Shown: one piece after another, positions 12,269-63,484 of the stretch
Numbering within the stretch: position 1 is the stretch's first letter
Layout: every line of letters starts with the position of its first letter
Assembly (NCBI GenBank): GCA_947176265.1
Contig: CAMWQA010000001.1
Span: 11,772-75,771, forward strand
Length of the DNA: 64,000 bases
Reading direction: 5' to 3'
From: an uncultured Clostridia bacterium
Lineage (GTDB): Bacteria; Bacillota; Clostridia; Christensenellales; UBA3700
Program-made: the position numbers and the translations under genes
Notes under the pieces: generated by a model
What the model was told of the DNA's origin: nothing
Database searches by the model: none
What the model saw: only the letters and a program-made list of their open reading frames with translations

Positions 12269-12294
12269 TAAGATTATATGATGATTTTTAACAC

Positions 12295-12372
12295 TCGCCA
12301 AAAGCGAATATAACTTTGCCAAAGGCAAAATATAACTCCGACGCAGTCGGAATATAACTGTCGCAAAGCGAC
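12295..12372 (+). repeat. Tandem mini-hairpin array A: four 13-nt palindromes separated by AATATAACT
   Basis: TCGCcaaaaGCGA, TTGCCaaaGGCAA, CCGACgcaGTCGG and GTCGCaaaGCGAC start at 12295, 12316, 12338 and 12360 (22-nt period). The first three are followed by (A)ATATAACT. Confidence 0.85.
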
Positions 12373-50850: not shown

Positions 50851-52653
50851 GTGAACACGATTAAGAAATTGATGAAGAGTATCCGACAGTTCAAGGCTGC
50901 GTCGATTTTGTCGCCGGTTTGCGTTGCGCTGGAAGTTGCAATGGAATGTATAATACCGCTATATATGACAGAGATGATAGCCAAGATAAATACGCCCGAC
51001 GTGAAGATCACTGACATATTGTTATACGGCGCAATACTTTTGGTATTGGCGGGAGTTGCGTTGCTTTTCGGCGTACTTGCGGGTAAGTTTGCCGCGACCG
51101 CATCGACAGGCTTTGCCAAAAATCTCAGACAGGATATGTATTACCGTATTCAAGGTTTTGCATTTTCCAACATAGATAAGTTCTCCGCGCCAAGTTTGGT
51201 TACGAGAATGACAACCGACGTGACCAACGTGCAGATGGCGTATATGATGATAGTCAGAGTTGCAGTGCGCGCGCCGTTAATGCTAATATTCTCGCTTGCA
51301 ATGGCGTTCGTTCTCAACGCTAAAGTTGCGTTGATTTTCTTGGCGGTCATACCGGTGCTTGCCATAGGCTTGTTTATTATGTTTAGATTCGTAGACCCGA
51401 TATTCACGCGAGTATTCAAAAAGTACGACGCTATGAACGAGTCCATACAGGAAAATATCAAGGGTATAAGAGTAGTCAAGTCGTACGTAAGAGACGAATA
51501 CGAAGACGAGAAATTCCAGAAGACGTCCAACAACGTGCGTTACGACTTCCTTAAGGGAGAAAAGATAATTGCGCTTTCCGGACCTCTTATGCAATTCTGC
51601 ATGTGGTTTTCCATATTGATGATATGCTTTTTAGTGCCAATGATTGGAGTTAAAGCCGGCATAGGCGCGTCGACAGAAGACAAAGCGTCTGCCGAGATAG
51701 CCAGCGAAATGTCTTCGCTTATCGTGTACGCTACGCAGATATTGTCATCGCTGATGATGCTCAATATGGTAATGATAATGATATCGATAGCCAATACTTC
51801 GTCAAAGCGTATCGTCGAAGTATTGAGCGAAGAGAGCGATTTGCATAATCCCGAAAATCCCGCCTACGAGGTCAAGAACGGCGACGTGCGTTTTGAAGAC
51901 GTCGACTTTAAATACGACGTCAAAGCAGACAGACGCGCGCTCAAAGGCGTAAATCTCGACATTAAGTCGGGCGAAACCGTGGGTATTCTCGGCGGTACGG
52001 GTAGCAGTAAGACGTCGCTTGTCAATCTCATACCGAGACTGTACGACGCAACGAGCGGGCACGTATTCGTCGGCGGACGCAACGTTAAAGAATACGACCT
52101 TGAGACGTTGCGTAACGAAGTCGCGGTAGTCTTGCAGAAGAACGTGCTTTTTTCGGGTACGATAAAGGAGAATTTGCGTTGGGGTAATGCCGACGCAACC
52201 GACGAAGAACTTGAGAGGGTATGCAAGTTGGCGCAGGCGCATGACTTCATAATGGGCTTTCCCGACAAATACGATACGTTTATCGAGCAAGGCGGAACTA
52301 ACGTATCAGGCGGACAAAAGCAGAGACTTTGTATTGCAAGAGCTTTGCTTAAAAAACCAAAGATACTTATTCTTGACGACTCGACTAGCGCGGTAGATAC
52401 CAAAACGGACGCTCTTATTCGCAAAGCGTTTGCAGAAGAGATACCCAATACGACCAAGTTTATAATTGCGCAAAGAGTTGCTTCCGTGCAAGACGCGGAT
52501 AAAATCATCATAATGGACGGCGGCAGCGTTGCAGACGTGGGAACGCACGACGAATTGCTTGCGCGCAACGAGATATATCAAGAGGTATATTACTCTCAAA
52601 ACAAAACCAACAACGACGGAGAGGAGGTAAAGGCAGATGGCGCAGAAGACTAG
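50851..52653 (+). CDS. ABC exporter, fused permease/ATPase (half-transporter 1)
   Basis: Six-TM domain, Walker A GGTGSSKTS, signature VSGGQKQR, Walker B ILILDD. GTG start. Confidence 0.9.
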   Translation: MNTIKKLMKSIRQFKAASILSPVCVALEVAMECIIPLYMTEMIAKINTPDVKITDILLYGAILLVLAGVALLFGVLAGKFAATASTGFAKNLRQDMYYRIQGFAFSNIDKFSAPSLVTRMTTDVTNVQMAYMMIVRVAVRAPLMLIFSLAMAFVLNAKVALIFLAVIPVLAIGLFIMFRFVDPIFTRVFKKYDAMNESIQENIKGIRVVKSYVRDEYEDEKFQKTSNNVRYDFLKGEKIIALSGPLMQFCMWFSILMICFLVPMIGVKAGIGASTEDKASAEIASEMSSLIVYATQILSSLMMLNMVMIMISIANTSSKRIVEVLSEESDLHNPENPAYEVKNGDVRFEDVDFKYDVKADRRALKGVNLDIKSGETVGILGGTGSSKTSLVNLIPRLYDATSGHVFVGGRNVKEYDLETLRNEVAVVLQKNVLFSGTIKENLRWGNADATDEELERVCKLAQAHDFIMGFPDKYDTFIEQGGTNVSGGQKQRLCIARALLKKPKILILDDSTSAVDTKTDALIRKAFAEEIPNTTKFIIAQRVASVQDADKIIIMDGGSVADVGTHDELLARNEIYQEVYYSQNKTNNDGEEVKADGAED

Positions 52654-54550
52654 AAGCATAAAAGGTACGATGCCGATACTAGGCAGACTTATCAAATATA
52701 TGTTCAAGTACTATAAATTGCAGCTTATAGTAGTGTTGATTTGCATTACGCTCAACGCTATGGCGGCAATAAGTTCGTCGATATTTATTGAGAGAATAAC
52801 CAACGACGTCATTATTCCAGGTCTTGAACACGGATGGGACAGCGTAAAAGATACTATGTTTACCATAGTAGCGATAATGGTTGGCATATATATTGTGGGA
52901 CTTATAGCGTCGTTTACCTACAATAGAATAATGGCTCACGTAACGCAGGGTTTTTTGTATCACGTCCGCAACGATATGTTCAAAAAGATGCAGTCGCTTC
53001 CAATCAAGTTTTTTGATACGCATACGCACGGCGATATTATGAGTATATACACCAACGATACCGACGCTATTCGACAGCTCATCTCGCAAAGCGTTCCGCA
53101 GACGTACTCGTCGTTTGTTGCGATAATCACTTTGCTTGTCACAATGTTGGTCTCAAGCGTATGGCTTACGCTCGTAGTACTTGCGGGAGTGTGCTTAATG
53201 TTTGTAGTAATAAAGTTGATTGGCAGCAAGAGCGCAAAATACTTTATGCGTCAGCAAATAGCAATGGGTAAGTCGGAAGGCTTTATTGAAGAGATGATGC
53301 ACGGGCAAAAAGTTGTCAAAGTATTTTGTCACGAAGAAAAGGCAAAGGCAGACTTCGACGTTATCAACGACGGCTTGTTTAAAGACAGCGAAAGAGCCAA
53401 TAAGTACGCAAATATCCTCATGCCTACGCTAGGCAATATAGGCTACGTGCTTTACGTAGTAGTAGCCATAGTGGGCGGAGTACTGTCGCTTGCAGGCGCG
53501 CATAATCTTTCGCTCAAAGGTCTTGCCGCAGAGGGAATAACGATGGGCGCAATCGTGGCCTTCCTGAATATGAGCAGACAGTTTACGTTCAATATATCGC
53601 AAGTATCTACTCAGCTCAACTCCGTTGTAATGGCTACCGCCGGCGCAAGCAGAATTTTCAAATTGTTGGATCAATCTCCCGAGACAGACGAGGGATATGT
53701 TACGCTTGTCAATGCAAAGGAAGAGAACGGACAACTTGTTGAGTGCGAGGAACGTACGGGTATCTGGGCGTGGAAGCATCCGCATAAAGCAGAGGGCACG
53801 ATTACGTATCAAAGACTTACGGGAGATATCGAACTCAACGAAGTAGACTTTGGATACGTTCCCGAGAAGATAGTATTGCACGACGTAACAATACACGCAA
53901 AACGCGGACAAAAGATTGCTTTCGTAGGCGCAACCGGCGCGGGCAAGACTACGATAACCAATCTTATCAACAGATTTTACGATATTGCCGACGGCAAGAT
54001 ACGCTATGACGGTATAAATATAAATAAGATAAAGAAGGGCGACTTGCGCAGATCTTTGGGAATAGTTTTGCAAGATACCAATTTATTTACAGGTACTATT
54101 ATGGATAATATTCGTTACGGTAGACTTGACGCGACGGACGAAGAGTGTATCGCCGCTGCAAAACTTGCCAACGCGCACGACTTTATCACGCGTCTGCCGA
54201 GCGGCTATGAGACTATGCTTACGGGCGACGGCGCTAATCTTTCGCAAGGACAAAAACAGTTGCTTTCTATCGCAAGAGCGGCGGTAGCAGACGCTCCCGT
54301 AATGATTTTGGACGAAGCAACTTCGTCAATTGACACTCGTACCGAAGCGCTCGTTCAGCAAGGTATGGATAGACTTATGGAAGGTAGGACGGTATTCGTT
54401 ATCGCGCACAGACTTTCCACCGTGCAAAATTCCGATATGATTATCGTGCTAGATCACGGTCGTATTATCGAGAGCGGCAATCACGACGAGTTGATTGCGC
54501 AAGGCGGACAGTATTATCAGTTGTATACCGGAGCATTTGAGCTAGAATAA
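52637..54550 (+). CDS. ABC exporter, fused permease/ATPase (half-transporter 2)
   Basis: Walker A GATGAGKTT, signature LSQGQKQ, Walker B MILDEATS. Overlaps the preceding gene by 17 nt. Confidence 0.9.
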   Translation: MAQKTRSIKGTMPILGRLIKYMFKYYKLQLIVVLICITLNAMAAISSSIFIERITNDVIIPGLEHGWDSVKDTMFTIVAIMVGIYIVGLIASFTYNRIMAHVTQGFLYHVRNDMFKKMQSLPIKFFDTHTHGDIMSIYTNDTDAIRQLISQSVPQTYSSFVAIITLLVTMLVSSVWLTLVVLAGVCLMFVVIKLIGSKSAKYFMRQQIAMGKSEGFIEEMMHGQKVVKVFCHEEKAKADFDVINDGLFKDSERANKYANILMPTLGNIGYVLYVVVAIVGGVLSLAGAHNLSLKGLAAEGITMGAIVAFLNMSRQFTFNISQVSTQLNSVVMATAGASRIFKLLDQSPETDEGYVTLVNAKEENGQLVECEERTGIWAWKHPHKAEGTITYQRLTGDIELNEVDFGYVPEKIVLHDVTIHAKRGQKIAFVGATGAGKTTITNLINRFYDIADGKIRYDGININKIKKGDLRRSLGIVLQDTNLFTGTIMDNIRYGRLDATDEECIAAAKLANAHDFITRLPSGYETMLTGDGANLSQGQKQLLSIARAAVADAPVMILDEATSSIDTRTEALVQQGMDRLMEGRTVFVIAHRLSTVQNSDMIIVLDHGRIIESGNHDELIAQGGQYYQLYTGAFELE

Positions 54551-54642
54551 GCCAAAAGCTTATTCTAGCAGTTATATTCCGCCGTTGATGGGGTTATATT
54601 GCCCCTTGGACAGTTATATTATTGCTTCGCAATAGTGAGATT
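54541..54642 (+). repeat. Mini-hairpin array B-left (AGTTATATT orientation), partly degenerate
   Basis: GCTAGAATAAGCcaaaaGCTTATTCTAGC (covers the ABC stop codon) + AGTTATATT; two degenerate units; ATTGCttcGCAAT + AGTGAGATT. Confidence 0.75.
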
Positions 54643-54671
54643 AAAATAGAAGGCAAAAAGCCTTCTATTTT
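54643..54671. terminator. Hairpin/terminator inside the left cassette arm
   Basis: AAAATAGAAGGCaaaaaGCCTTCTATTTT: a 12-bp stem with A/U-rich shoulders. Confidence 0.6.
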
Positions 54672-54713
54672 AGTTACGGATAAGTTATTTAGATTTTATA
54701 AAGAAAACTAATA

Positions 54714-55063
54714 TTAGTTTTCTTTTAGTGTTTTGCAAGAAGAAATTAACATAATTCTTATTGCGCCACAATTATTATTAAGTTTTTTAAAATCATTTTC
54801 AGATATGTAGCCTGTTTCAAATAGAAGTTCCAACCAATACTCGCTTTCATAACATTTTTTAAGGCAATCTCAAACTTGGATATAAAGTCCAACTTGCTTT
54901 GAGCATACTGCGCCTCATAAATATTTGCTCCTATGCTCGTTCCTGAACGAATAAGTTGATTTGCCAAAACGCTTTCAATTTTTGACGAATTTATACTTTT
55001 GCATAAAGTAATAATTTCTTTTGCAAACGCTTTTGACTTTTCTCTCAATACACTATCGCTCAT
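54714..55063 (-). pseudogene. Four-helix-bundle protein gene (23S rRNA IVS protein / PF05635-like), interrupted by a frameshift at an A6 run
   Basis: The zero frame gives ...LANQLIRSGTSIGANIYEAQ...FEIALKN and then nonsense. The -1 frame continues CYESEYWLELLFETGYISENDFKKL...KTLKEN*, which matches the family. The span is 350 nt, one nt short of an open frame. T6 run at 54855-54860 (+ strand). Confidence 0.75.
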
Positions 55064-55082
55064 TACTATTTACCTCAATTAA

Positions 55083-55111
55083 ATTTTATCAACATTAATA
55101 TTCACAGTCAA
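55083..55111 (-). promoter_or_regulatory. Cassette-internal promoter of the four-helix-bundle gene
   Basis: Minus strand reads TTGACT(55111-55106)-17 nt-TAAAAT(55088-55083) with a TGa extended -10. SD GAGGT lies 8 nt before the ATG at 55063. Confidence 0.6.
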
Positions 55112-55139
55112 TAAAAAATTATAATAATTATCCGTAACT

Positions 55140-55168
55140 AAAATAGAAGGCTTTTTGCCTTCTATTTT
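55140..55168. terminator. Hairpin/terminator inside the right cassette arm
   Basis: AAAATAGAAGGCtttttGCCTTCTATTTT, the mirror of 54643-54671. Confidence 0.6.
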
Positions 55169-55177
55169 AATCTCACT

Positions 55178-55259
55178 ATTGCGAAGCAATAATATAACTG
55201 CCCGAAGGGCAATATAACTATTTTCTTGCTTGCAAGAAAATAATATAACTTGCAAGCTC
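55178..55259 (+). repeat. Mini-hairpin array B-right (AATATAACT orientation)
   Basis: ATTGCgaaGCAAT, GCCCgaaGGGC and ATTTTCTTgcttgcAAGAAAAT are each followed by AATATAACT. The last hairpin, GCAAgctctgtTTGC, reaches the thiT stop codon. Confidence 0.8.
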
Positions 55260-55265
55260 TGTTTG

Positions 55266-56267
55266 CTAACTTTCTTCGACGTTATCGTTTTTGCTTATCA
55301 CTTCGCTTTGTTCGGAGTTGCCGACTTCCGCGCTTGCAATGCCGTCGCTCGCAACTCTTGCTCTTTGCTTGTATACCACTTCATTCATAAATGCTTTTGA
55401 CGAGAAGAGTAACATACCTACTGCGAGTACTATTGCGATATCCACGAATACGAAAGAGTTGTACCCAAGGCTATATATGTAGATATTCTGTCCTGCGTCG
55501 TGCGCGTACGCTCCGAATGCGCATACGCCCGAGAGAAAGTGCGCCATAAATCTCAATACGCTTGCCATAATGCCGCCCAGCAACAAAGATACTTGCGGAA
55601 GTTTTTTGAACACGTAAAATTTTGCAAACGCTCCGCTTAGTCCAATTGCAGAAAAGGCGATTGGGTAATCTAGCAAGAATTGCACGGGATGAATAATGTA
55701 CGGGTCTTGAATTGCTTGCAATACGCCGTATATTAAACCTACAAGCAAGCCTTTCTTCACTCCGAAGATATAAGAGAAAAGCATAAGCGGAAGTAGGGAA
55801 GCAAGCGTTACGCTTCCTCCTTGCGGTAATTTAAACAGTCTAACGTAAGACAATGCAAAGCTCATTGCAATGCAGACTGCGCCAAACGCAACGGAGCGAG
55901 AATCAAATTTAAAATTCTCTTTTCTGCCAAGCAAGAAGGTCAAGCCTATTACCGCGCCTATCAATACGACTGCGCTTATATAAAGAGGCGCGTTCTTGAA
56001 GTAAGGGGAGTAGTACCCGTCATTTTTGATATTGTCGACGTAATACTTGCCAATGAGCGAAATGCACACGATCGTGGCAACAATGCAAAGTCCTATGGCA
56101 ACGTAGATACATATACCGATAGTCTTTGGGGCGCGCTTACGCAAATACATTAAAAACATAAATGCAAAAAGCGCAATGAATAGTGCAAAGATAGGCCAGA
56201 AGAGTAGATCGGGCAATTCGTCGCCGCTCGACGTCTTGACAGCCATCAATACAAAGAGGTTGTTCAT
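55266..56267 (-). CDS. thiT: Thiamine transporter ThiT-like ECF S-component, with N- and C-terminal extensions
   Basis: The core GGSVTLASLLPLMLFSYIFGVKKGLLVGLIYGVLQ...HPVQFLLDYPIAF resembles the ThiT/YuaJ family. A TPP riboswitch lies upstream. At 333 aa it is long for an S-component. Confidence 0.7.
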   Translation of the reverse strand: MNNLFVLMAVKTSSGDELPDLLFWPIFALFIALFAFMFLMYLRKRAPKTIGICIYVAIGLCIVATIVCISLIGKYYVDNIKNDGYYSPYFKNAPLYISAVVLIGAVIGLTFLLGRKENFKFDSRSVAFGAVCIAMSFALSYVRLFKLPQGGSVTLASLLPLMLFSYIFGVKKGLLVGLIYGVLQAIQDPYIIHPVQFLLDYPIAFSAIGLSGAFAKFYVFKKLPQVSLLLGGIMASVLRFMAHFLSGVCAFGAYAHDAGQNIYIYSLGYNSFVFVDIAIVLAVGMLLFSSKAFMNEVVYKQRARVASDGIASAEVGNSEQSEVISKNDNVEES

Positions 56268-56296: not shown

Positions 56297-56420
56297 ATAA
56301 AAAGACGTCCCATTAAAAGTGGGGCGCCTATATACTTCCTGCGTTTTACGCTCTTTCGTTCAAGTATTACCTTGTCCGATTCAAGTGGTATAATCTCAGC
56401 CTTTTACAGCACCCACGGCG
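56297..56420 (-). promoter_or_regulatory. TPP (THI-box) riboswitch with a terminator expression platform
   Basis: Minus strand reads GGGTGC...GCTGAGAttatACCActTGAAtCgGAcaaGGTAATActtgaacGAAAGA, then GGCGCCCCActtttaaTGGGACGTC + TTTTTAT. A promoter-like TTGACA sits at 56471-56466. Confidence 0.75.
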
Positions 56421-56493
56421 AATATTTATTTTTTATATATTGAATATATAATATATATTTTAATTTGTCAAATGTTTTTATATATTTTATCAA

Positions 56494-56549: not shown

Positions 56550-58643
56550 TTAAGCGTTAGCGTCACTAGCATTACCAATCTTGAATTGATTAAATTTGAA
56601 AACTACATCTATTGGGAATGCAATGCCGCCGCCGAAATCAACTGTTTGAGCTTCGCCTGTAAGCGAAGTAGCAGATTTAGCAGTAACGGTTATGCCGTTC
56701 TTGTTTGCCTCGATTTTAGCAGAGACGTTCAATCTTCCTGCGTTGCTGCCAGCTGCTGCCTTACCAGCGTTTGCTGCGTTGATTATAATGTTCTTGATAG
56801 AAGCTTGGAGTACGATACCCGTCTTGTCAGCTACTACGGTTGCGTCCAATGTGGTGTCGCCCAAATCTACTTCTTTTTGCTTGCCGGTCTTCTCGTCGAT
56901 AACTTCAACTTCAACGTCTTCGCCTTTCTCGTTTTTCTGAGTCTCAGTTGCTTTCCAAATGTTGCTAGCTACAGAGTAGTTCTTGAAGTCTACGTCAGCC
57001 AACTTGCCGTCGCAGTTTACGAGGATGGTCAAGTTCTTGATGATTGGAGCAAGAGTCTTCATTAATTTTTGAATATCTATGCCGTCTTTTTTGTCGTCGC
57101 CGGAAGGAGCGCCTGAAAGATCGCCAGATACGTTACCCGATACGTTACCGGATGCATTACCGCTACCTATTTCAGGTTTTGCTTCTTCCTTAGGAAGGAA
57201 TCCCTTGACTATGTCAATAACGCGGCCAAGTTTAACAGTACCGCTTGGGAACATTGCGCCGAGGTCGCCCAACAATGCAAGGTTTGTCAAGTTAACGTTC
57301 AAGTCAACGGTGGTTTCACTTGTATAGATTTTCTTGAGCGAAATGATAAGTTGCTTATCTTCATCTTCTGGATGATCTTTATCCTTAATTTCAATGCTGA
57401 GATAGTCAACTACGTTTGTCAAGATTTTGCTAATCAACGACAATGTCTCGTCAGTATTCTTTGATTTAAAGCTCGTTCCGAGAAGTCCAACAGGGTTGAG
57501 GTCAGCGGCAATATTAACTGTGTAAGTGCCGGTAGGTATACCAAGCTTCTTTTCGCCATTGAGATTCAACGTAACTTCAATAGGTTTCTTAACTTCAAGT
57601 TCGCCGCCTGCAGTGAAGTTGATTGCGTTGATAGCCTTATAAGATGCTGCAGAACCAATTATATATGGTACGGTTACGTCTCCGCCGAATTTGAAATCAA
57701 GACCGAGTCCCAATTCGGTATTCTTATCCAAATTGATACGTACGAAATTAGTTTCGTCAGTTCTTGTTAACTTAAGATCTTTGGTGCCCAAGTTGAGTTT
57801 AGCGTCAACGCCCATGAATTTTGCGTCTTCAAATTTGTCTTTTTCTGCGCCATCCATCTTGAAGTGGAGATCAAGCGTCAAAGATGGGAGAAGGGTCTTG
57901 ATGTCGCTAGTCTTCAAAGCAAGACCAAGTTGTCCGGTGTACTCTTCGATCTCCAAGCCTTCCAACAAATCGTTTGCGTTTTCCAAGACTTGTGCAAGAT
58001 TGAGTCGGAAGAGAACTTCTTTTTTGTCATTTGATTGCCAGGTTTTGCCAAGGCTGAAAACGGTTTGCATCTTCTCAAGCGCGTCGCCAAGTGCGTCGAG
58101 TACGTCGTTGGTAACGCTTTCGTCATCGACAACTACGTTCTCACTCTTCATGACAGACTTGATGCTCAAAGCGTCAACTGCAAATTTTTGTTTGCCAAGG
58201 TCAAGGAAGAGAGTGCCTTCGCCTGTCTTGTAGCCTTCTTCTGTAGACTCGTCAGGTCGTTCAGTGTAATATACGTTCAAAATGTTTGCGTTGTTAGCTT
58301 TTGCGTCAACGATGGACAAGCCAAACGTGGTCTTGTTAGCGTCGTCAGCTTTCAAAGCAACGTTAGCGCCGAATTTAATGCGATAGTCGCATGCCGCGTC
58401 GCCGTACTTAGCAGCTACTCTAAGCTCTGCGCCCATTTTGATCGAGCTTACATCCTTACCATCTGAAGTGTTGTAGATAGCATCGTTTAATGCTTCCGAT
58501 AGTGGTGTCGCCATTTTACTGTATCCCGCAGGTGGGGTGTCTTTGTCTTCGTCTTTTGGACCGCAACCTACCAAAGCGGTAAGAGCAAGAGTAAGAACCA
58601 TCACAAGGATCAACAAAGAAATGACTAGTTTCTTCTTGTTCAT
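56550..58643 (-). CDS. Large lipoprotein of unknown function
   Basis: MNKKKLVISLLILVMVLTLALTALVGC contains a lipobox. Strong SD (TAGGAGG). Internal GSGNASGNVSGNVSGDLSG linker. I recognise no family motif. Confidence 0.6.
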   Translation of the reverse strand: MNKKKLVISLLILVMVLTLALTALVGCGPKDEDKDTPPAGYSKMATPLSEALNDAIYNTSDGKDVSSIKMGAELRVAAKYGDAACDYRIKFGANVALKADDANKTTFGLSIVDAKANNANILNVYYTERPDESTEEGYKTGEGTLFLDLGKQKFAVDALSIKSVMKSENVVVDDESVTNDVLDALGDALEKMQTVFSLGKTWQSNDKKEVLFRLNLAQVLENANDLLEGLEIEEYTGQLGLALKTSDIKTLLPSLTLDLHFKMDGAEKDKFEDAKFMGVDAKLNLGTKDLKLTRTDETNFVRINLDKNTELGLGLDFKFGGDVTVPYIIGSAASYKAINAINFTAGGELEVKKPIEVTLNLNGEKKLGIPTGTYTVNIAADLNPVGLLGTSFKSKNTDETLSLISKILTNVVDYLSIEIKDKDHPEDEDKQLIISLKKIYTSETTVDLNVNLTNLALLGDLGAMFPSGTVKLGRVIDIVKGFLPKEEAKPEIGSGNASGNVSGNVSGDLSGAPSGDDKKDGIDIQKLMKTLAPIIKNLTILVNCDGKLADVDFKNYSVASNIWKATETQKNEKGEDVEVEVIDEKTGKQKEVDLGDTTLDATVVADKTGIVLQASIKNIIINAANAGKAAAGSNAGRLNVSAKIEANKNGITVTAKSATSLTGEAQTVDFGGGIAFPIDVVFKFNQFKIGNASDANA

Positions 58644-61638: not shown

Positions 61639-63312
61639 ATGGAAAATAATAAAGAAATGATAAGTTCGTTCCAAAGTTTTGGATTGAACGCCGAAATTAT
61701 AAAGAGTCTTGACGAACAAGGCATCACGCTTCCCACGGATATACAGAGGGAAGTGATTCCATTTGCGCTTCAAGACGGAGACGTAGTAGCTCAAGCGCCT
61801 ACTGGCACGGGCAAGACGCTTGCGTTCGTATTGCCTATGCTTGCAAAGATAGACAGAGACGCTTCATGCGTACAGGCGATCGTGCTTTGTCCTACCAGAG
61901 AACTCGTAATCCAGATTTGCGAAGTAATTCAAAACGCTTGCAAGTATTACGAGCGTGTGCGAGTCGCAGGGCTTTACGGCGGACAGAATATTCAAAGACA
62001 GCTCTTTTGTCTTCGCAAAAAACCTCAAATCGTCGTAGGTACTCCCGGCAGACTGCTCGATCATATCGACAGACGCACATTGAAATTGAACGACGTCAAT
62101 TACCTAGTGCTTGACGAGTGCGACGAAATGCTAGATATGGGATTTAGAGGGGATATAGAAAAGATAGACGGCAAAGTGAGCGAGGCTCAAAGACTTTGTT
62201 TTTCTGCGACCATACCGCAATCTATCAAGTCTCTTATCGAGAAACTTTTGCGCAATCCCACCTTTGTCAAGACGTCGGTCGACGGCGAAGATACCCCCAA
62301 GATTGAGCAGTATTATTGCGTAGTCAAGGACGCTCAGCGTCTTGGCGCAATGCTCAAGATTATCGACGGCAACAAATACGATTTCGTCATCGCATTTTGC
62401 AATACCAAGACGAGAGCGGACAAACTTTTCTCCGCGCTCAAATCAAAGGGAAGAGAAGTTGCGCTTTTGCACGGCGACTTGCGACAGAGCGAGCGCACGC
62501 AGATATTAAAGAGGTTCAAAGCAAAAGAGCTTAAAATACTCGTTGCCACCGACGTTGCGTCGCGCGGCCTTGATATTGACGGAGTACAGGCGATAATCAA
62601 TTTCGATCCGCCGACGGACGAAGATTTTTACGTGCACCGCATAGGCAGGACTGCAAGGGCAAACAAAGAAGGCGTGGCTTATACTCTCATTGACAGTTCT
62701 CAAGTGGGATATATTCCCTCGTATCAACGCAAAGTGGACAACGCGCTTAAATATATGGATATAGGCGTCATTTCCGACAGCTTTACTATGCCTAAAGACG
62801 GATCTAATAAACTCAAAGATTTTCACGACAACCAAAGCAGATTTTTCCTCAACGTAGGCAAACGCGACTTGCTTGACAAAGACAGTCTTACCAAGTTGCT
62901 TTTGACGTATACGCCGTTAAAAATATACGAGATTGCCGACCTTAAAATTAGAGATACATACGCATTCGTATCGGTTATCAAAGGTTGCGAGAGCAAACTG
63001 TTTAAACTCAAAGGCGTGGTCCTCGGCAAAAGACAAGTTGCAATCCAAGAGGCGCGAGAGGAAGAAAAACCGCAAAAACAAAACGCGCCTTTGCAAAAGA
63101 AGAGCGAGAGCAAGTCGGCAAAAGGCAAAACAGGCAAAAATATCGATGGTAAAAAATACGCGCCAAAAGATAAATCGCCAAAGTCCAAAAACAATAATTC
63201 AAAGAGTAAGCCGCATACGCAATCCAATAAAAGCCGACTTACGCAAATGTTTGAAGACGAGTTAAACTATTCAGCAAAGTACTCTCAAAAGAGTGGCAAG
63301 AAGAAAAAGTGA
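61639..63312 (+). CDS. DEAD-box ATP-dependent RNA helicase with a DbpA-like RNA-binding domain and a long Lys-rich tail
   Basis: Q-motif region, AQAPTGTGKT, DECD, SAT and HRIGRTAR motifs. The C-terminus has RFFLNVGKRD...AFVSV, which is DbpA-like. Confidence 0.9.
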   Translation: MENNKEMISSFQSFGLNAEIIKSLDEQGITLPTDIQREVIPFALQDGDVVAQAPTGTGKTLAFVLPMLAKIDRDASCVQAIVLCPTRELVIQICEVIQNACKYYERVRVAGLYGGQNIQRQLFCLRKKPQIVVGTPGRLLDHIDRRTLKLNDVNYLVLDECDEMLDMGFRGDIEKIDGKVSEAQRLCFSATIPQSIKSLIEKLLRNPTFVKTSVDGEDTPKIEQYYCVVKDAQRLGAMLKIIDGNKYDFVIAFCNTKTRADKLFSALKSKGREVALLHGDLRQSERTQILKRFKAKELKILVATDVASRGLDIDGVQAIINFDPPTDEDFYVHRIGRTARANKEGVAYTLIDSSQVGYIPSYQRKVDNALKYMDIGVISDSFTMPKDGSNKLKDFHDNQSRFFLNVGKRDLLDKDSLTKLLLTYTPLKIYEIADLKIRDTYAFVSVIKGCESKLFKLKGVVLGKRQVAIQEAREEEKPQKQNAPLQKKSESKSAKGKTGKNIDGKKYAPKDKSPKSKNNNSKSKPHTQSNKSRLTQMFEDELNYSAKYSQKSGKKKK

Positions 63313-63469
63313 GATTATTGCTGAGCAACAGTGATAATATAATAAGTGGACGAGCAGTCCTCTGCGCGGACAGTTATATTTTTGCCTATGGCAAAAGTTA
63401 TATTGCCACTGCGTGGCAGTTATATACGCCTTCGGCGAGTTATATCGTCGCTATGCGACGGTTAAGGAT
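63308..63469 (+). repeat. Mini-hairpin array C (AGTTATAT orientation)
   Basis: AGTGAGATT (contains the helicase stop TGA); TTGCtgaGCAA; GGACgagcaGTCC/GTCCtctgcgcGGAC; TTTGCCtatGGCAAA; GCCACtgcGTGGC; CGCCttcGGCG; CGTCGCtatGCGACG. From the third hairpin through the sixth, each is followed by AGTTATAT(T). Confidence 0.85.
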
Positions 63470-63484
63470 ACTTTATTAAGATTA

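Follow-up and report, generated by a model that had tools for sequence, protein, structure and literature searches.

A quasi-palindrome between two convergent genes

In the 64,000-nt stretch of DNA from an uncultured Clostridia bacterium analyzed here (the window, within which all coordinates are counted), an ABC transporter gene and thiT converge on a block of about 0.73 kb (54541-55268) that consists of two facing hairpin arrays around a small gene. The arms occupy 54541-54683 (left) and 55128-55266 (right), and each starts where one of the convergent genes has its stop codon. Both hold five short palindromes with the directional 9-mer AGTKATATT between them and finish with the motif AGTTACGGATAA. 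A 105-nt inverted repeat of 91% identity with a perfect 73-nt core joins the inner halves of the two arms. The region is AT-rich (27-32% GC), and the fold stability of both arms lies far above that of shuffled sequences (z = -7.7 and -6.1). The original prediction had described the region as a structural quasi-palindrome of hairpin and 9-mer units; this feature is confirmed, and the sequence is as first described. The block belongs to a family of dispersed, structured repeats found in gut and rumen Clostridia; each of its halves is of the Gut-1 type (Rfam RF01706) and is closed by AGTTAMGG. It links Gut-1 with a protein of the intervening sequence (IVS)/Avd family, both elements of unknown function, for the first time.

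The exact 9-mer AGTTATATT occurs ten times in the window against 0.92 ± 1.02 expected, a count that none of 100 shuffles reached, and all ten copies fall in four intergenic arrays beside palindromes. Enrichment of the 9-mer beyond base composition had been set as a test beforehand, and within the window it was borne out. Read on the minus strand, the right array contains AGTTATATT three times and AGTGAGATT once, with perfect palindromes of 22, 11 and 13 nt between them; on the plus strand the exact AATATAACT lies at 55191, 55211 and 55242, and the palindromes are clean. The left arm had been described as repeating AGTTATATT, which holds for the repetition but not for the second copy, which is inexact and reads GGTTATATT. 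Similarly, the outermost hairpins were said to cover both stop codons: the TAA of the ABC gene (54548-54550) does lie within the 5′ arm of the first left hairpin, but the hairpin on the thiT side is weak and overlaps the stop by only 1 nt. The 3′ arm of the first left hairpin is a perfect 12-nt inverted copy of the last codons of the ABC gene. In the array-less ortholog L143 (comparison loci and assemblies are designated by L numbers) these codons encode the same protein end, and 3 of the 12 nucleotide positions differ.

The small gene between the arms encodes a four-helix-bundle protein. Over profile positions 5-70 of 106, its 101-aa open reading frame (ORF; 54758-55063, minus strand) matches the family of the 23S rRNA intervening-sequence protein, PF05635 (E = 3e-13); it also matches TIGR02436, "four helix bundle protein". 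The C-terminal remainder lies in the -1 frame at 54714-54833 and reads ...CYESEYWLELL...KTLKEN*, like the intact homologs (L016/L052), one base being short in an A-run. The independent assembly L119 carries this lesion too. The gene could be a pseudogene or could depend on slippage for its expression. The frameshift site forms the slippery heptamer A_AAA_AAU, at which a -1 slip would restore the full-length protein. An intact homolog matches TIGR02436 with E = 2e-32 and the PDB structure 2RLD, an entry with five chains, with E = 1e-32. The PF05635 family resembles Avd of diversity-generating retroelements (DGRs) (PMC10053308). As PADLOC returned no match, membership in a defence system was rejected. 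The features of the block and the two further arrays of the window are listed in Table 1.

Table 1. Features of the thiT/ABC intergenic block, its flanking genes and the other arrays of the window.
Feature	Position	Strand	Remarks
Further Gut-1 array	12283-12360	-	44.6 bits; 3 exact 9-mers, 22-nt period
ABC transporter gene (context)	52637-54550	+	Last codons and TAA form 5′ arm of first hairpin
Left outer hairpin hp0	54541-54569	+	GCTAGAATAAGC-caaaa-GCTTATTCTAGC; 12-bp perfect stem, 5-nt loop
Left Gut-1 array	54570-54642	+	Rfam Gut-1, 35.6 bits over 54569-54646
9-mer AGTTATATT, left array	54570-54578	+	
Degenerate hp1 CCGCCGTTGATGGGG, left array	54579-54593	+	
9-mer variant GGTTATATT, left array	54592-54600	+	
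Left copy of 105-nt inverted repeat	54593-54697		Perfect core 54612-54684
Imperfect hp2 GCCCCTTGGAC, left array	54601-54611	+	
9-mer AGTTATATT, left array	54612-54620	+	
Palindrome ATTGCttcGCAAT, left array	54621-54633	+	
9-mer variant AGTGAGATT, left array	54634-54642	+	
Bidirectional terminator-type hairpin, fifth of left arm	54643-54671	both	AAAATAGAAGGC-N5-GCCTTCTATTTT; 12 bp, A/T-flanked
Left arm-closing motif AGTTACGGATAA	54672-54683	+	Counterpart of AGTTnnGGCGAATAT centre in canonical elements
Four-helix-bundle protein gene (PF05635/TIGR02436)	54714-55063	-	Frameshifted
Frameshift A-run	54855-54860	-	UUA AAA AAU; T-run on + strand; putative, by comparison with L016
GAGG ribosome-binding site	55073-55076	-	
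Cassette sigma-70-type promoter	55083-55111	-	TTGACT-17-TAAAAT with TG
Right copy of 105-nt inverted repeat	55114-55218		Perfect core 55127-55199
Right arm-closing motif	55128-55139	-	
Right-arm bidirectional terminator hairpin	55140-55168	- (bidirectional)	
Right Gut-1 array	55169-55250	-	Rfam Gut-1, 43.4 bits over 55165-55251
Right outer hairpin GCAA-N7-TTGC	55252-55266	-	Weak (4 bp); 1-nt overlap with thiT stop codon
thiT gene (context)	55266-56267	-	
Further L-type arm	63311-63480	+	4 nine-mers, ends GGTTAAGGATAC; motif only

Gut-1 arrays, their dispersal and their protein gene

An Rfam scan of the window at gathering thresholds gave no match to the arrays. With E-value thresholds, the arms matched a single family, Gut-1, with 44.6, 43.4 and 35.6 bits (E-values of 1.7e-5 to 3e-3 when the whole window is searched with all families), and the cmscan alignments span the full model, positions 1-77. 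The window arms fall below the Gut-1 gathering score of 50 bits, and homologous arms of relatives lie above it (51.5-64.4 bits for six further left arms; 52.1 bits for L116), so that the window copies are divergent members of the family. The 2010 description of Gut-1 drew on 43 sequences from human-gut metagenomes and judged it to be an RNA that is not cis-regulatory (Weinberg et al., PMC2864571). Its model consists of three hairpins joined by a purine-rich linker with the consensus GUGAAAU (RF01706), unlike the linker variant of the window, AGUUAUAUU. The unmodelled flanks of the original seed rows contain a terminator in front, four units, a GGCGAAUAU centre and a second arm in inverted orientation. 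Gut-1 is defined by at least three consecutive hairpins with stem-extending linker ends, and in our alignment U-A and U·G pairs close the stems in 27 of 27 arms. The arrays share with Gut-1 the consecutive short GC-rich hairpins, the conserved linker, the compensated variable stems and the gut-metagenome habitat, whereas the published motif is a single arm, modelled as a small RNA, whose context was unknown. Newly seen are the facing pairs, their position behind gene 3′ ends, their occurrence with a PF05635 gene in named metagenome-assembled genomes (MAGs) of rumen and gut Clostridia, and the absence of the wobble bias expected of RNA. A literature search for the 9-mer strings returned unrelated matches only.

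Two other arrays of the window lie outside the block. The one at 12283-12360 sits between the stop of the upstream gene (~12268) and the start of glgA (12391), antisense to both, and its last hairpin, GTCGCaaaGCGAC, abuts the glgA ribosome-binding site. The arm at 63311-63480 has no Rfam match at E<0.05; the TGA stop of the upstream ORF lies inside its 9-mer variant AGTGAGATT, and its GGTTAAGGATAC end resembles the closing motif of the cassette arms.

To assess how widely the arrays occur, we scanned GTDB species genomes for AGTTATATT-N11-15-AGTTATATT and found at least 118 stretches. Among the matches listed, rumen and gut MAGs of Acutalibacteraceae, Ruminococcaceae, Oscillospiraceae, Christensenellaceae or "Clostridia bacterium" predominate. 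The arrays there most often take the form of a stereotyped composite 172-178 nt long, of which 27 clean copies with four plus four 9-mers were found. The composite begins with a long hairpin or terminator, followed by four 9-mers with small hairpins, the centre AGTTnnGGCGAATAT, and four inverted 9-mers with larger hairpins. The first two left 9-mers are always AGTTATATT, the third and fourth are of the T- or G-type, and the inverted ones are mostly AATATCACT. The left hairpins are specific to their positions: CGCC..GGCG, GCTTCGC, one variable hairpin and GCCC..GGGC. Since these identities are conserved across species (hp1 CGCC..GGCG, hp2 GCTTCGC), the arms are inherited as whole modules, and the earlier suggestion that the arrays grew outward unit by unit is not supported. 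Units can nonetheless be lost or expanded between 9-mers. A right arm of exactly three units, present in L061, L062 and L071, is missing between two 9-mers in L038, and five identical tandem units gcctgcggc-AGTGATATT on the minus strand of L103 point to a recent expansion of units in that array.

The original prediction that arrays are placed precisely at gene ends was upheld across the family. The upstream gene ends facing the arm for 19 of 23 left arms and for 55 of the 76 arms with a neighbour, and the first 9-mer follows the stop codon at a median of 71 nt, the arms standing directly behind a hairpin or terminator. The 125 ORFs neighbouring 78 arrays span 144 Pfam families, mostly housekeeping; no transposase or integrase was among the Pfam families common to several of these neighbours, and neither a conserved neighbouring gene nor a recombinase was found around the arrays. 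Composites also lie directly 3′ of transfer-messenger RNA (tmRNA) and tRNA genes. In two species they start about 40 nt after the tmRNA (L018 2910-3493; L020 924-1489), with every hairpin differing between them, and tRNA genes flank composites in L003, L023, L028 and L031.

Several other identities for the arrays were considered and set aside. A phage origin was rejected, as palindromic spacers occurred in only 1 of 82 viral-contig loci with a spaced 9-mer pair. A CRISPR array does not fit the 9-nt repeat and the palindromic "spacers" of 7-22 nt, and no cas genes lie nearby. Resemblances to CRISPR-like repeats, integron attC sites, DnaA boxes and omega heptads were dropped because the units differ in size, spacing or sequence. 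A rod of stacked four-way junctions, in which each left 9-mer would pair with a right one, was rejected because the outer 9-mers are T-type on one side and G-type on the other in 23 of 27 copies; covariation between left and right 9-mers was limited to the innermost pair (p = 9e-4).

Next, we examined where the gene of the four-helix-bundle protein is found. About ten distinct contexts of this protein subfamily were inspected (the window, L016, L052, L121/L130, L131, L141, L231, L234 and L235), together with the 54%-identical L021, and in every one a Gut-1-type array lies directly upstream of the gene. The distance from array to ATG is at most about 70 nt in most contexts and about 200 nt in L131. 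As the window holds roughly one arm per 16 kb, such adjacency would be expected by chance for about 5% of genes. One layout (ii) runs from hairpin through left arm, centre, right arm, promoter and gene to a terminator. The other (iii) reads left arm, centre, promoter, gene, terminator, centre and inverted left-type arm, and a second, inverted arm downstream of this kind occurs in four contexts, namely the window, L131, L141 and L235. The majority of arrays have no protein gene adjoining them. A second protein subfamily (L021 and L238, 54% identical) stands behind arrays with the linker (A)GTGAAG instead of AGTKATATT that keep the layout of terminator, left arm and right arm (L238 1290-1500; L021 440-515). 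This hints that protein and linker may co-vary. The L238 array follows a tRNA gene, and the protein encoded there recurs unchanged in hundreds of contigs from the human gut, at a single conserved locus.

The same intergenic region was then compared in a relative, L143, whose thiT is 78% identical and faces the same convergent ABC gene. There the region is 160 nt long and carries one ordinary bidirectional terminator, with neither array nor cassette. The absence of the block from this orthologous site suggests that it was most likely acquired at the gene end, although in this single comparison a loss in L143 is also conceivable. The independent assembly L119 follows the window with 99.8% identity across the ABC genes and the left arm and then continues with the cassette in the opposite orientation: L119 2846-3342 corresponds to window 55218 to 54722, the 416-bp segment between the inverted repeats being reversed. 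This fits a putative inversion by recombination between the 73-bp perfect repeats, with an arbitrary choice by the assembler as the alternative. A third assembly, L237, breaks off within the left arm, 93 nt beyond the ABC stop. In practice, such arrays break short-read assemblies and can flip a gene-sized segment between them.

Some observations concern the neighbourhood of the block or other loci. A TPP riboswitch lies upstream of thiT (56336-56426, minus strand) and is invisible in a default scan because its 41.6 bits fall below the Rfam gathering score of 54.3. The thiT product has 333 aa, of which only residues 129-288 form the ThiT domain, leaving a long N-terminal extension. The 697-aa ORF at 56550-58643 (minus strand) has no Pfam match, and an identical copy stands at the end of another contig of the same MAG (L248, JAIDYS010000017.1) in a different gene neighbourhood. 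A 177-nt presence/absence difference between L238 (2693-2909) and L241 (2692-2731), which sits near another locus of the protein, between convergent PNP_UDP_1 and nitroreductase genes of one species, was dismissed as an unrelated insertion with the direct repeat ccttga at its bounds.

DNA or RNA, and the competing explanations

We analyzed the hairpins for signs of the level at which their structure acts. Stems are paired in 97.3% of cells, compared with 26-54% when partners are slid, and the covariation score of 0.198 (0.064 in shuffles) was reached by none of 500 shuffles. The 274 unique hairpins comprise 1207 Watson-Crick pairs, 15 G·T, 22 A·C and 24 other pairs, and a smaller set agrees; Watson-Crick pairs thus make up about 95% of stem pairs (28% in shuffled spacers). 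Read along the 9-mer strand, 88% of loops have a closing 5′-C..G-3′ pair, 79% begin with T, and 56% end with C and 26% with T. By this bias the complementary strand carries c(GNA)g or c(GNNA)g loops, whose third position shows no purine preference. Such loops are the signature of exceptionally stable DNA mini-hairpins and not of RNA GNRA loops; GCGAAGC is the textbook case, and it is the complement of the near-invariant hp2. The lack of a G·U excess together with the strand-specific loops points to palindromes at the DNA level rather than to an RNA on one strand, and we lean towards a structure that acts on DNA or on both strands. There is a precedent in the DGR target, which requires a DNA hairpin or cruciform with a sequence-free GC-rich stem and a strand-specific G..A loop and where Avd is named among the components possibly contacting the loop (PMC3240598).

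At the level of transcription, the hairpin and AGTTATATT units fit a relaxed terminator pattern. Since an arm offers its terminator-like units only to a polymerase coming from outside, a facing pair would insulate in both directions. A transcript reading through the block would, by prediction, fold into a duplex of about 100 bp over the inverted repeat, which resembles the stem of an rRNA IVS; that stem is cut by RNase III (PMC4990558).

The best-supported explanation, to which we assign a probability of about 50%, is a dispersed, structured intergenic element of the type of repetitive extragenic palindromes and bacterial interspersed mosaic elements (REP/BIME) or of the IVS type, with the four-helix-bundle protein as its partner. 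The arrays would be mainly DNA-level palindromes able to form hairpins or cruciforms, and would serve as the cis partner of the protein, much as REP/BIME sequences do for REP-associated tyrosine transposases (RAYTs) or the DGR target cruciform for the Avd machinery. Copies would come to lie immediately after transcription units, behind their terminators or stop codons. Insertion there would be tolerated because the units of hairpin and U-rich 9-mer, with their embedded bidirectional terminators, would keep neighbouring transcription insulated, and read-through would turn the 105-nt inverted repeat into an IVS-like duplex. Insulation would make insertion at gene ends tolerable, but it leaves the conserved 9-mer, the antisense glgA array and the link to the protein unaccounted for. 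The analysis establishes what the parts are, that they are dispersed, that L143 lacks the block at the orthologous site, that the protein gene adjoins the arrays, and the pairing statistics of the palindromes. From these patterns we infer that the protein may bind the arrays, that the action is probably on DNA and that the protein may have a role in their spread.

Several points weigh against this element-and-partner explanation. We know of no catalytic function for the protein, a 118-aa helical bundle, and neither a target-site duplication nor a recombinase was found at the block. The protein gene of the window is frameshifted and the right arm is still perfect. Orthologous positions seem to be kept from species to species, for instance those behind the tmRNA (L018 and L020), and copies have diverged, unlike the near-identical copies of a recently active element. 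The co-variation of protein and linker is based on two subfamilies only, and the inversion on two short-read assemblies, for which the repeat exceeds common k-mer lengths. Furthermore, each hairpin has a conserved closing U·G pair on the 9-mer strand, the stems, at 4-7 bp, are short for the extrusion of a cruciform, and the Rfam curators judged Gut-1 to be an RNA ("RNA? Y"). A long-range 9-bp helix, P1 (ATATTCGCC/GGCGAATAT), which is paired in all 27 canonical left arms, looks RNA-like. In its alignment columns (8-16 with 99-107) all 243 cells are paired, with four G·U and zero A·C, and one position covaries between 22 C-G and 5 U-A pairs. The helix excludes the first hairpin, lies outside the Rfam model and is present in the window arms in a degenerate version only.

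A more far-reaching form of the same explanation strikes us as unlikely. In it, free-standing PF05635/TIGR02436 bundles would recognise the hairpin and linker units and drive or maintain their spread behind terminators, 23S rRNA IVSs would be the same element lodged in an rRNA hairpin, and the role of Avd at the DGR target would be derived. Equally speculative is the part of it that would relate the five units per arm to the five chains of 2RLD and see in the whole a REP/RAYT-like system built on a non-enzymatic protein.

The rivals rank in the order of a host RNA terminator or insulator, a Gut-1 RNA-protein particle, an inverton and a miniature inverted-repeat transposable element (MITE). The first of them would make the arm the 3′ end of the upstream gene, a series of weak terminators or 3′-end protectors (hairpin and AGUUAUAUU) that insulates when paired. 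It agrees with the arms standing in sense orientation right after stop codons or primary terminators, tRNA and tmRNA genes included, with the terminator-like character of the AGTTATATT units, with the canonical terminator that forms the fifth hairpin of both window arms, and with U·G closing pairs on the sense strand only. However, G·U is not in excess over A·C among the 1268 stem pairs, U..C loop bases are untypical of stable RNA loops, and a U-tract needs no strict conservation of a 9-mer across families. In addition, 21 of 76 arms face a gene 5′ end and the array at 12283-12360 runs antisense to the operon in which it lies, and the obligatory neighbourhood of the four-helix-bundle gene is left unexplained. 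We consider this cis-acting role doubtful, although it leads the rivals.

Still less probable is a ribonucleoprotein of Gut-1 RNA and the four-helix-bundle protein, comparable to DGR RNA with Avd, in which lone arrays would be extra RNA genes or binding sites. The Rfam classification as RNA, the covariation score and the closing helix P1, paired in 100% of cells with G·U present and A·C absent, all agree with it, and it would account for the protein gene adjoining an array in every subfamily context examined and for the five hairpin units per arm beside the five chains of 2RLD. On the other hand, DNA palindromes predict equal covariation, the wobble bias is absent, the space from the upstream terminator to the first 9-mer leaves no room for a promoter, and the motif lies on opposite strands in the two arms.

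The opposite orientations in two assemblies of the same species, the perfect 73-bp repeat core and the third assembly that breaks inside an arm would be expected of a phase-variable inverton, in which the 105-nt repeats recombine and a 416-bp flip switches the small gene or read-through into the neighbours. Yet the cassette has its own promoter and flanking bidirectional terminators, so that orientation should matter little, and no recombinase lies nearby (the neighbours are MarR and two ABC genes on one side and thiT and the 697-aa ORF without a Pfam match on the other). Another locus of layout (iii) has one orientation in 10 of 10 contigs, and a RecA-mediated flip or an arbitrary assembler choice would account for the data. 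We regard this switch as improbable.

An ordinary MITE, whose arms would be terminal inverted repeats with multiple sites for a transposase encoded elsewhere and whose small gene would be passenger cargo, is in our view very improbable. Inverted arms with 4+4 directional sites about 22 bp apart, presence and absence at an orthologous site and the many genomic contexts speak for it. However, the flanks carry no target-site duplication, no transposase was found among the Pfam families common to several neighbours of the 78 arrays, two L086 copies 2.7 kb apart differ in most hairpins, the spacers are constrained to palindromes, which transposase sites do not require, and between the two arms the outer 9-mers differ systematically. 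Finally, chance or low-complexity sequence in an AT-rich region between convergent genes is refuted by the 9-mer count, the folding z-scores of -6 to -15 and the same architecture in dozens of genomes.

Comparison with known systems

The IVSs of 23S rRNA, for example in Coxiella burnetii (PMC4990558), share with the block an element size of about 0.4 kb, a PF05635 ORF, terminal inverted repeats and a long stem in the transcript. Both also have a GC content below that of their surroundings and a sporadic presence that suggests horizontal gain, and no mobility gene has been identified in either. The IVSs sit in helix 9, 25 or 45 of 23S rRNA, whereas the block lies between the ABC and thiT genes of a window that contains no rRNA. 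Unlike in the IVSs, the inverted repeats of the block are embedded in arrays of hairpins and 9-mers with terminators, and the cassette has a promoter.

The DGR target with Avd (PMC3240598) has in common with the arrays a hairpin or cruciform with a sequence-free GC-rich stem and a strand-specific G..A loop, a location at a gene 3′ end and an Avd-family protein in the system. The stems of the block are shorter (4-7 bp), occur in arrays of five and have their G..A loops antisense to the upstream gene; neither a reverse transcriptase nor template and variable repeats were found among the genes adjoining the cassette or the examined homologs. Elements that target terminators, such as the group IIC introns discussed in the same work (PMC3240598), likewise lie directly after terminator hairpins, a position that would limit harm to the host, but unlike them the arrays carry no intron RNA or reverse transcriptase and have a conserved 9-mer. 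With intrinsic terminators the arrays share units that resemble weak terminators.

The REP/BIME sequences of Proteobacteria share with the arrays the form of short extragenic palindromes in mosaic arrays with conserved linkers, located at gene 3′ ends or between convergent genes, the many copies among housekeeping genes, and a dedicated protein gene flanked by inverted repeats. These elements, with the REPtrons and REPINs, were reportedly treated by Nunvar in 2010, by Bertels and Rainey in 2011 and by Ton-Hoang in 2012. In contrast to them, it is the linker of our block that is conserved while the palindromes vary, there is no GTAG-type cleavage motif, and the host belongs to another phylum. 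A REPtron flanks a Y1 HUH transposase, whereas the block flanks a PF05635 four-helix bundle. Since 2010, Gut-1 has been an orphan "RNA" without organism, context or function, and PF05635/TIGR02436, a very large family and likewise an orphan, has been known solely from rRNA intervening sequences and from Avd, the accessory protein of DGRs. If the partnership is real, their co-occurrence would give both a shared, testable hypothesis, namely that the protein binds the arrays as DNA or RNA, and would suggest a Firmicutes counterpart to the proteobacterial REP/BIME-RAYT systems.

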